Virus record (IMG/VR): IMGVR_UViG_2585427708_000005
Origin: a virus
Lineage: Duplodnaviria; Heunggongvirae; Uroviricota; Caudoviricetes
Strand: one strand, 5' to 3'
Length of the DNA stretch: 64,000 nucleotides
Position numbers and translations under genes: made by a program. Shown here one piece after another: positions 14,997 to 15,806 of this stretch. The notes under the pieces were generated by a model that worked only from the letters and a program-made list of their open reading frames with translations, did not search any database and was not told the DNA's origin. How positions within the stretch are numbered: the first letter of the stretch is position 1; each line of letters opens with the position of its first letter.

Positions 14997-15806
14997 ATGC
15001 AAGAAGAGAAACAACACTACCTCTACGTTCTGGTGCCAGAGAACGGAGATACTTTTAAAATCGGCATTTCATGTGGTCCATTGGCACGGTTTAAAGGGCT
15101 ACAAGTGAGTCCCGATTTTGCGCTTTCACGGGTCTATCGTGGTACGCGTTTGGCAATGGTTAATCTTGAGCGGGCTTTACACGCAACCTTTTTCCCTTGG
15201 AATGCGCCGTGGGAGAAAAGCGCCGGTGGCGGGCATACTGAATGGTTTACACGAGAGTGTCTTGATAAGGTTTTGGCTCATATCGAATATCTAAATGATA
15301 TGTGGGGAGGGATTCTCAAGCGCATTAAGTCGAATGATTTACTTCAGCGTCCAGTAGATGCTGCTTGCTCTTTCGAAAAAGAGCTGGATGTTACTTCTAT
15401 CGTGACTTTCAAAGATGACGCAGGAATGAGGGACGTGGCTTATGTCTCCATATCTGGCTATGAACCGGACGCGATCCACGCTCAATGTGAATTGCTGAAA
15501 GCAATGTTTATGCTTCGGACTAAATATCCCTGGGAGACAGGGCGGGTGTGCTTCCCTATGGAAGAGTTAACCGCCACCATTGATTCCCAGCTTTACCACG
15601 ATAATCCAGAGAAGTTTTTTAGCCTTTTAGCCGGTAATGGGCTTAACTGTGTGTCCGGGCTGGGGCGAAGTAGAATCCAACATGCCTCGCTCTTCGGTCC
15701 CTTCTTTTACGATCGACACGGGTACTTTGAGGCTGAACTTCCGGCGCTTACGCGTGCTATAGATACTATCGATTTCGAACGATTATTCGCTGCTCTTAGC
15801 AAATAA
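14997..15806 (+). CDS. T5orf172-domain (GIY-YIG-like superfamily) protein, 269 aa
   Basis: N-terminal HYLYVLVPENGDTFKIGIS...RFKGLQ...LERALHATF...GGGHTEWF pattern; located between incA and parA; own terminator. Confidence 0.55.
   Translation: MQEEKQHYLYVLVPENGDTFKIGISCGPLARFKGLQVSPDFALSRVYRGTRLAMVNLERALHATFFPWNAPWEKSAGGGHTEWFTRECLDKVLAHIEYLNDMWGGILKRIKSNDLLQRPVDAACSFEKELDVTSIVTFKDDAGMRDVAYVSISGYEPDAIHAQCELLKAMFMLRTKYPWETGRVCFPMEELTATIDSQLYHDNPEKFFSLLAGNGLNCVSGLGRSRIQHASLFGPFFYDRHGYFEAELPALTRAIDTIDFERLFAALSK

Follow-up and report, generated by a model that had tools for sequence, protein, structure and literature searches.

What is a gene with a T5orf172 domain doing between the control iterons and the partition operon of a P1-like phage-plasmid? 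The question is raised by the IMG/VR virus record IMGVR_UViG_2585427708_000005 (Caudoviricetes), of which a stretch of 64,000 nucleotides, called the window from here on, has been analysed. An earlier note on this DNA had described an open reading frame (ORF) of 269 amino acids (aa), with an N-terminal T5orf172 signature and its own terminator, as a gene inserted between the incA iterons and parA, where P1 was said to have none, and had suggested that such an insertion could affect incA spacing or par expression. As described below, the T5orf172 gene is the last gene of a whole p0111 replicon cassette and not a lone insertion, and the plasmid can replicate and partition without it. As for its role, we consider it most likely, at about even odds, that it encodes a dispensable, replicon-linked, site-specific endonuclease, which a Rep-like winged helix would direct to iteron DNA or RepA-bound origins near the incA-par junction of related elements, thereby favouring its own cassette, either by homing with co-conversion or through damage to a competitor.

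The gene closes a replicon cassette

When the window is compared by BLASTN with P1 (AF234172), homology extends over 11122-13622 (95%) and again over 15873-19000 (98.9%), with nothing between. The whole intervening block is therefore a different replicon allele. The P1 DNA that it replaces consists of the incC iterons, repA, incA and 170 bp of spacer, and the block itself holds, in this order, origin iterons, repA, incA-like iterons, the T5orf172 gene and a terminator (Table 1). The IncY replicon of P1 and P7 resembles that of the window in having iterons, a Rep3-family repA, control iterons and a par operon, and the left half of the origin and par are homologous in the two. By contrast, the RepA proteins of P1 and the window are 43% identical, the iterons are different, and the IncY replicon has no gene between incA and Ppar. 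In the annotated P1 reference the interval between the last incA iteron and Ppar is indeed empty, as the earlier note had stated, and upfA is found upstream of oriR, outside this interval. The placement given in that note holds in so far as the gene sits between incA-like iterons and the par promoter; these iterons, however, are not P1 incA, and the word "inserted" is misleading, since P1 homology has already ended at 13622 and repA and the iterons are themselves non-P1.

The breakpoints consequently contradict the idea that a mobile accessory gene was simply and recently inserted into the incA-parA spacer of P1, where it would perturb incA spacing or par expression, and we regard this idea as very improbable. 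Although it would agree with the absence of the gene from P1 at this position, and although the comparison of a Salmonella element (L004) with P1 looks like a clean indel beside the last P1-type iteron, the repA and iterons that flank the gene in the window are non-P1, the gene does not differ in GC content from the DNA around it, more than 390 plasmids have the block as a fixed feature, and Ppar, with its operator, falls entirely within the restored P1 homology, on the far side of the terminator. A foreign origin was also considered on the basis of composition and was ruled out (47.3% GC in the gene, 46.4% in the window).

The block is whole in 391 of the 404 matching PLSDB plasmid records, and it is also present in 12 phage records, including RCS47, SJ46, JL22 and phi456. 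The cassette is 98-99% identical to those of JL22 and of pO111_2 (NC_013370), the namesake of the p0111 replicon type, which carries the block as well. The replacement of IncY by p0111 is already published, as the description of JL22 reports that repA' (p0111) and gp57, of unknown role, take the place of the IncY repA (PMC9603915). The coordinates of repA are identical to those given by RefSeq in two of the related records (L007 and L002). The MOB-suite typing provided by PLSDB calls three of these plasmids (NZ_CP043272, or L007; NZ_CP127308, or L008; and NC_013370, or L009) "IncHI1B", which is misleading for a Rep3 replicon.

A nuclease-type N-terminal domain

The 269-aa ORF is real and intact. 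The identical 810-nt coding sequence is called by RefSeq in related plasmids, under the name "GIY-YIG nuclease family protein". Because the ORF is kept in more than 400 plasmids and its frame is held in syntenic homologues at 27-44% identity, it must be considered more than the product of chance. PHROG 2876, a family with no assigned function, matches the protein over its full length; PADLOC returned 0 families for it at E-values up to 1, and NCBIfam was also without a match. In the record of the phage phi456 (OR339795.1) the same gene is mislabelled as "terminase small subunit".

The elements of the N-terminal signature noticed earlier (YLYVL, KIGIS, R31, ERALH and TEWF) are all there, and the hidden Markov model (HMM) of Pfam proposed as a check, PF10544, matches residues 8-85 with an E-value of 4.7e-6 and 27.5 bits, above the curated gathering cut-off of 20. 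Neither of the two outcomes that the earlier note had named as contrary to its proposal, the lack of an HMM match and the presence of the gene in P1 itself, was found. Across 142 homologues, G23, R31, E58 and E82 are invariant, and Y10, K21, I22, H62, G79, T81 and F84 are nearly so (at least 90% conservation for Y10, K21, H62 and F84); every one of these residues is kept in the window protein. In an alignment, E58 corresponds to E180, the catalytic Glu of Odn, a nuclease of phage ICP1 whose E180A mutant does not cut (PMC8263062). The Pfam search of the protein gave no match to PF01541, the canonical GIY-YIG family, and there is a weak profile match to the GIY-YIG structure of UPF0213 (1ywl; E = 0.25) in which the motif residues are aligned.

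A C-terminal domain predicted to be Rep-like

Between lineages of the protein, identity is 34-64% in the N-domain, 10-32% in the linker and 14-31% in the C-domain. The divergence also stands out against that of the neighbouring genes: between the window and the element on contig L003, the T5orf172 protein is 44% identical, compared with 84% for RepA, 89% for ParA and 80% for gp23.

The C-domain was modelled from four lineages, with a predicted local distance difference test score (pLDDT) of 68.8 and a predicted template modelling score of 0.67. A full-length AlphaFold2 model, built from a 2-sequence alignment, reached a pLDDT of 52.6 and was discarded. In three fold searches with the C-domain model, Rep3-type iteron initiators rank first, with weak scores. 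For instance, the top 16 matches of Foldseek in the PDB are all RctB, Rep WH1 or RepE54 (best E-values of 0.03-0.04), and a COG5527 plasmid-replication initiator leads the matches in BFVD (probability 0.97). With moderate confidence, the C-domain is predicted to resemble the WH1 of the Rep3 iteron-binding initiators. At the level of sequence, no similarity between the C-domain and five RepA proteins was detected with BLASTP or hhalign, and the Rep3 profiles PF01051 and PF21205, which match the neighbouring RepA proteins, miss all four C-domains even at E-values up to 10. Additionally, an HMM of the C-domain gave nothing significant against 165 collected proteins, and hhalign of the C-domain against the Rep parts of the fusion proteins discussed in the next section was negative. 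As no sequence link between the C-domain and Rep was found, we do not claim that a domain was copied from a known RepA in the manner of Odn.

Relatives fused to Rep3 domains

The nearest relatives of the N-domain include fusion proteins (P0015, P0044, P0154, P0156, P0158 and P0160-P0164) in which, according to Pfam, T5orf172 is followed by Rep3_N (WH1) and Rep3_C (WH2). Of the 141 nearest representatives, most have no partner that can be identified; where there is one, it is most often Rep3_N. On one metagenomic phage contig (L010, 5617-8293), three 32-bp iterons are followed by rep and, after a gap of 20 bp, by the fusion gene, whose product is 47% identical to the neighbouring Rep in the DNA-binding region and nearly identical to it at the WH2 end. 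On an unrelated metagenomic phage contig (L061, 4824-7680), the fusion gene follows rep after 1 bp, and the identity is 38% across the whole of Rep. Thus, the arrangement in which rep is followed by a T5orf172 nuclease with a Rep-type binding module recurs, and the genes of these two contigs appear to represent an undescribed class of Rep-paralogous nucleases.

The P1-like protein is 31-38% identical in the N-domain to the fusions P0015, P0044, P0156 and P0161-P0164, and on both contigs the T5orf172 gene likewise comes directly after the rep gene. However, Pfam recognises the Rep3 domains of the fusions, which are evident paralogues of the Rep encoded next to them. The P1-like protein is smaller, has one WH1-like domain and shows no sequence similarity to RepA that could be detected, and the incA iterons lie between its gene and repA. 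The P1-like gene looks like a reduced, strongly diverged version of a rep-adjacent T5orf172::Rep fusion.

A constant slot in several replicon types

A search for relatives among 1.8 billion representative proteins recovered only four full-length lineages of the T5orf172 protein: the window type itself and three others, represented by P0004 (44% identical to the window type), P0009 (27%, from Salmonella) and P0011 (30%). In all four, the gene is found on P1-like contigs, 25-31 bp past the last incA-type iteron and ahead of parA. The alleles of the gene co-vary with the type of RepA. The RepA of the Salmonella element on L004 is 83% identical to that of P1, and the RepA encoded on L005 is of a third type. 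Thus, the gene accompanies a P1-type replicon in L004, whereas P1 and the IncY plasmids that have a P7-type par possess such a replicon and lack the gene. We conclude that several replicon types have long had a member of this gene family in the incA-par slot. In the incA-Ppar spacer of P1, tblastn detected no remnant of it (all E-values above 0.5), which fits either a loss in P1 or a gain elsewhere. The plasmid pSvP1 is reported to contain 2 additional ORFs in the interval from repA to parA. For P0004, the automatically assigned start lies 41 codons too early (L003 6001-6123), so that inverted iterons are translated as a repeated "AYSQH"; translation most likely begins at the ATG in position 6124 of L003.

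The swap recurs in a second pair of backbones. L003 and L004 have backbones that are 96-98.6% identical, and between them the cassette is swapped with the same limits as between the window and P1: about 15 bp before the first origin iteron on the left and 63-84 bp past the nuclease stop codon on the right. The right breakpoint between the window and P1 is 66 bp past the end of the gene. The location of the right breakpoints near the stop codon in two independent backbone pairs is compatible with homing, and it is no proof of homing. In the par region, IncY P1 is 99.1% identical to the window, which is as close as the par of other p0111 plasmids, and some p0111 plasmids are further from the window than IncY P1 is (93-94% identity in parB). 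These similarities indicate that cassette and backbone have been reshuffled in the E. coli population.

A further junction is seen in many IncY plasmids, in which the homology to P1 ends exactly at the last incA iteron (L001 3826). In such plasmids a P7-type par operon follows about 115 bp on, with no gene between (L006 4645-4761). A second sharp boundary between modules is therefore located where incA ends.

Natural alleles and dispensability

In a sample of 45 alleles, 44 from IMG/VR and one from GTDB, the T5orf172 gene is intact in 36. Seven alleles carry a nonsense codon, at aa 68, at aa 112 (five copies) or at aa 228; of the other two, one is cut by the end of its contig and one is interrupted by an IS200/IS605 insertion with a deletion (L055, 4295-6057; TnpB and TnpA, with 229 bp lost). 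About 16-20% of the natural alleles are thus disrupted. In the same loci, no nonsense codon was found in repA, parA or parB. Plasmids show similar lesions: pO111_2 (L009 2895-3704) has the aa 112 nonsense allele that is common to the five IMG/VR loci, the allele of pC5104 (L008 2601-3410) is interrupted by two stop codons, one at aa 2 and the other at aa 189, and in one plasmid the gene contains an IS3 insertion. The ratio of nonsynonymous to synonymous polymorphism (pN/pS) is 0.37 for the T5orf172 gene, compared with 0.02 for repA, 0.004 for parA and 0.08 for parB. Neither replication nor partition requires the gene, which is under weak but real constraint.

The frequency of nonsense and insertion alleles, together with the raised pN/pS, could suggest that the ORF is a functionless, decaying passenger. 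We nevertheless hold this to be quite improbable, as pN/pS is still 0.37, 80% of the alleles are intact, and the family stays in frame down to 27% identity, in the same slot and with invariant motif residues.

Iterons, terminator and expression

The incA-like array spans 14705..14966 and comprises two direct and four inverted iterons, and the gene does have its own terminator, as claimed before: a hairpin followed by a run of T (Table 1), with a folding energy of -11.9 kcal/mol (z = -2.3). A consensus scan found no promoter or terminator between repA and the ORF, and inspection by eye revealed at most weak -10-like hexamers in the inverted iterons. Given this result of the scan, expression of the nuclease by read-through from PrepA is reasonable, and the gene is probably transcribed in this way, across the iteron array. 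Downstream, the Ppar detected by a promoter scan coincides with the annotated Ppar of P1 projected through the alignment, and the homology to P1 restarts 19 bp upstream of its -35 box. Consequently, the effect on par expression envisaged in the earlier note is unlikely, because Ppar and its operator are untouched, in restored P1 homology, and the terminator insulates the promoter.

Two other observations concern this region. An iteron-like 16-mer, TGTTGACTATAAGCGA, is found inside the repA coding sequence (14422-14437), with a 94% match to the origin iteron, and the diverged repA of L003 keeps a 16-mer of the TGTTGACTATAAGCGA type at about 5611-5626. Judged from the sequence, it may be an internal RepA-binding site or merely a set of conserved codons. 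Further upstream, at 11371-11655, the window has a UpfC-like ORF of 94 aa, whose homologues in L003, L004 and L005 show weak marks of a PAAR motif in Pfam; this agrees with the note of P1 UpfC on similarity to T4 gp5.4.

Table 1. Features of the replicon cassette and its right flank (coordinates of the window).
Feature	Coordinates	Strand	Remarks
p0111-type replicon cassette	13623..15872	+	2250 bp replacing 1491 bp of P1
Origin iterons, incC equivalent	13638..13738	+	five direct TTGACTATACGCGA-like copies, 21-bp spacing; repeat search
repA	13820..14704	+	Rep3-family initiator with WH1 and WH2 (Pfam Rep3_N, Rep3_C)
incA-like array, direct copies	14705-14720, 14729-14744		repeat search
incA-like array, inverted copies	14824-14842, 14886-14904, 14918-14936, 14948-14966		repeat search
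T5orf172 gene	14997..15806	+	ATG start, stop ends at 15806; 810 nt, 269 aa
T5orf172 (GIY-YIG superfamily) domain, aa 1-105	14997..15311	+	Pfam PF10544
Linker, aa 106-140	15312..15416	+	poorly conserved, predicted disordered; pLDDT <50
C-domain, aa 141-269 and stop codon	15417..15806	+	fast-evolving; predicted Rep-initiator WH1-like winged helix
Intrinsic terminator	15814..15834	+	GCCCC-TGAAC-GGGGC-TTTTTTG; closes the repA/nuclease unit
Ppar	15892..15920	+	-35 TGTACA, -10 TATTAT; in restored P1 homology, outside the cassette
parA-parB	15975..18189	+	P1-type, 99.7% aa identity to P1; flanking context (parA, 15975-17171)

The position of the gene directly after the copy-control iterons, probably within the repA transcription unit, might also be explained if the protein were a domesticated regulator that no longer cleaves. 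Its Rep-like winged helix would then bind the iterons, or heterodimerise with RepA through WH1, tuning copy number, handcuffing or the expression of repA or par, much as CapR of PLE, an element that resembles phage-inducible chromosomal islands, is a repressor derived from a T5orf172 homing endonuclease gene (HEG). The predicted WH1-like fold of the C-domain (WH1 being the dimerisation domain of the Rep3 initiators), the co-variation of the alleles with the type of RepA and the precedent of a domesticated relative of the HEGs (PMC10448857) all speak for such a role. We consider it unlikely, however, because all residues of catalytic type are invariant, including the Glu equivalent to E180 of Odn, and because IncY replicons work without the gene. 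Moreover, 16-20% of the natural alleles, that of pO111_2 among them, are knock-outs, and pN/pS is 5- to 100-fold above that of repA, parA and parB, a pattern that is unexpected for a core control element.

Comparison with known systems

The origin-directed nucleases are among the closest known systems. If the C-domain is what its predicted fold suggests, the window protein would share with Odn (Gp88) and Gp5 of ICP1, and with the corresponding proteins of the coliphages Inny, Muut and Mt1B1_P17, the combination of a T5orf172 nuclease with a DNA-binding module of the replication-initiator type. The catalytic Glu is conserved (E180 of Odn, E58 here), and in both cases accessory genes often inactivated in natural isolates are found in a conflict around which replicon modules are swapped. 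By contrast, the order of the domains is reversed, the nuclease being N-terminal in the window protein; the RepA_N domain of Odn is 42% identical to the RepA of its target, whereas here the Rep3-WH1-like domain is seen by predicted fold only; and Odn is encoded by a lytic phage and aimed at a satellite, whereas the window gene lies beside repA in a plasmid replicon.

These parallels might suggest instead that the gene is cargo, namely an accessory nuclease for anti-phage or anti-satellite defence or for superinfection exclusion, whose target would be some unrelated invader, for instance a plasmid or satellite that replicates from a Rep3 origin. Weapons of this type are known in Odn and its analogues in coliphages, which are often frameshifted in natural isolates, and a fast-evolving specificity domain in a dispensable gene would fit. 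However, neither PADLOC nor NCBIfam gave a defence match, no candidate target element was identified, and, unlike the cargo of hotspots, the gene moves together with its replicon cassette and has one constant slot across four divergent lineages. This explanation seems to us improbable.

The free-standing T5orf172 HEGs of ICP1, T5-like and other phages (Barth, Dunham and Seed 2023; PMC10448857) belong to the same Pfam family and also flank essential genes where exchanged modules end, with fast-changing specificity domains and degenerate copies. Unlike the window protein, which has none, they mostly carry N-terminal DNA-binding repeats with zinc fingers (CapR, DUF723 or DUF4397), and the window gene differs further in that no empty site is seen within the p0111 type.

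I-TevI and the Seg proteins of phage T4 are GIY-YIG homing endonucleases with a catalytic domain of about 100 aa at the N-terminus; a flexible linker joins it to a DNA-binding domain at the C-terminus, and their genes are free-standing and intergenic. The predicted layout of the window protein has the same three parts, and its gene is likewise intergenic and free-standing. It differs from them in lacking a match to PF01541 and in its putative DNA-binding domain, which is of another kind, and the second Tyr of their motif is a Lys in the window protein, as in all T5orf172 proteins.

In the searchable literature, there is no paper linking GIY-YIG or T5orf172 to P1-like phage-plasmids. As far as that literature can be searched, four features described here have not been reported before: the constant position of the gene at the edge of the cassette across replicon types, the predicted Rep-WH1-like domain of its product, the kinship with T5orf172::Rep3 chimeras encoded beside rep genes, and the pattern of decay of the gene in populations.

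A proposed replicon-linked nuclease

Previous work has described T5orf172 genes as homing endonucleases located at the boundaries of genetic exchange, beside essential genes, and has found that they repeatedly became origin-directed nucleases by gaining initiator DNA-binding domains (PMC10448857). In this family, the specificity domains can be swapped, and the genes are often frameshifted in natural isolates (PMC10448857, PMC8263062). The family traits that can be tested here are all seen.

The cassette is self-contained and recombines as one unit among P1-like phage-plasmids. If the T5orf172 protein is the site-specific endonuclease proposed at the outset, the Rep-like domain would guide it to DNA of the iteron type, or to RepA bound to iterons, in or next to the incA-par junction, and its targets would be related elements that lack the gene or that have a rival replicon. 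The T5orf172 domain would then cut close by, and the repair or loss of the cut molecule would favour the inheritance of the nuclease together with the linked repA cassette. As read-through from PrepA would cross the iteron array, the occupancy of the iterons by RepA would gate the expression of the nuclease. We infer here the nuclease activity, the DNA target, the homing or competition and the mode of expression, as well as the self-protection of the element and the consequence for it. The gene and its domains, the residues of catalytic type, the limits of the cassette, the constant position, the dispensability, the relaxed constraint and the occurrence of T5orf172::Rep3 fusions beside rep genes are shown by the sequences.

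Several points weigh against this proposal. Ordinary recombination, selected by incompatibility, could produce the exchange of cassettes at these boundaries, in which case the gene would merely be carried along. For a nuclease that shared the specificity of its own replicon, a mechanism of self-protection would be needed. No p0111 replicon with an empty site was found among the matching plasmid and phage records, and ongoing homing within the p0111 type is therefore not visible. The fold evidence for a Rep-like C-domain is weak, and only 4 of the 141 nearest representatives of the N-domain have a recognisable Rep3 domain. Finally, the iteron consensus is identical in the window and in L003, yet the C-domains are 31% identical, which is awkward if the C-domain reads its cognate iterons as RepA does.

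A bolder version of the endonuclease proposal can also be formulated, according to which each type of P1-like replicon would carry at its edge a cognate, Rep-mimicking nuclease that cuts the iterons or RepA-origin complexes of co-resident relatives, thus turning the replicon of the rival into a copy of its own cassette or eliminating the rival. Although we find it rather doubtful, it would, if true, make the Rep-mimicking nuclease a gene drive or an incompatibility weapon for plasmid replicons. It would also explain the sharp boundaries of the cassette, the coexistence and turnover of IncY and p0111 on one pool of backbones, and the recurrent synteny of rep followed by T5orf172::Rep in unrelated phages.

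Meaning for P1-like phage-plasmids

Among the common vehicles of resistance genes in E. coli and Salmonella are the P1-like phage-plasmids, which divide into two replicon types, IncY and p0111, used for typing. If the T5orf172 gene is a passenger only, its recognition is still useful, as it lies outside the minimal replicon and is not an "insertion" into P1. If, instead, the nuclease targets origin-type DNA, the principle of the origin-directed nuclease of ICP1 would extend from the conflict between phages and satellites to the competition between plasmid replicons. The endonuclease proposal would, if true, provide a mechanism for the replacement of replicon cassettes and for the sharp junctions between modules, and it would indicate a broader and so far undescribed class of T5orf172::Rep3 chimeras whose genes adjoin rep.

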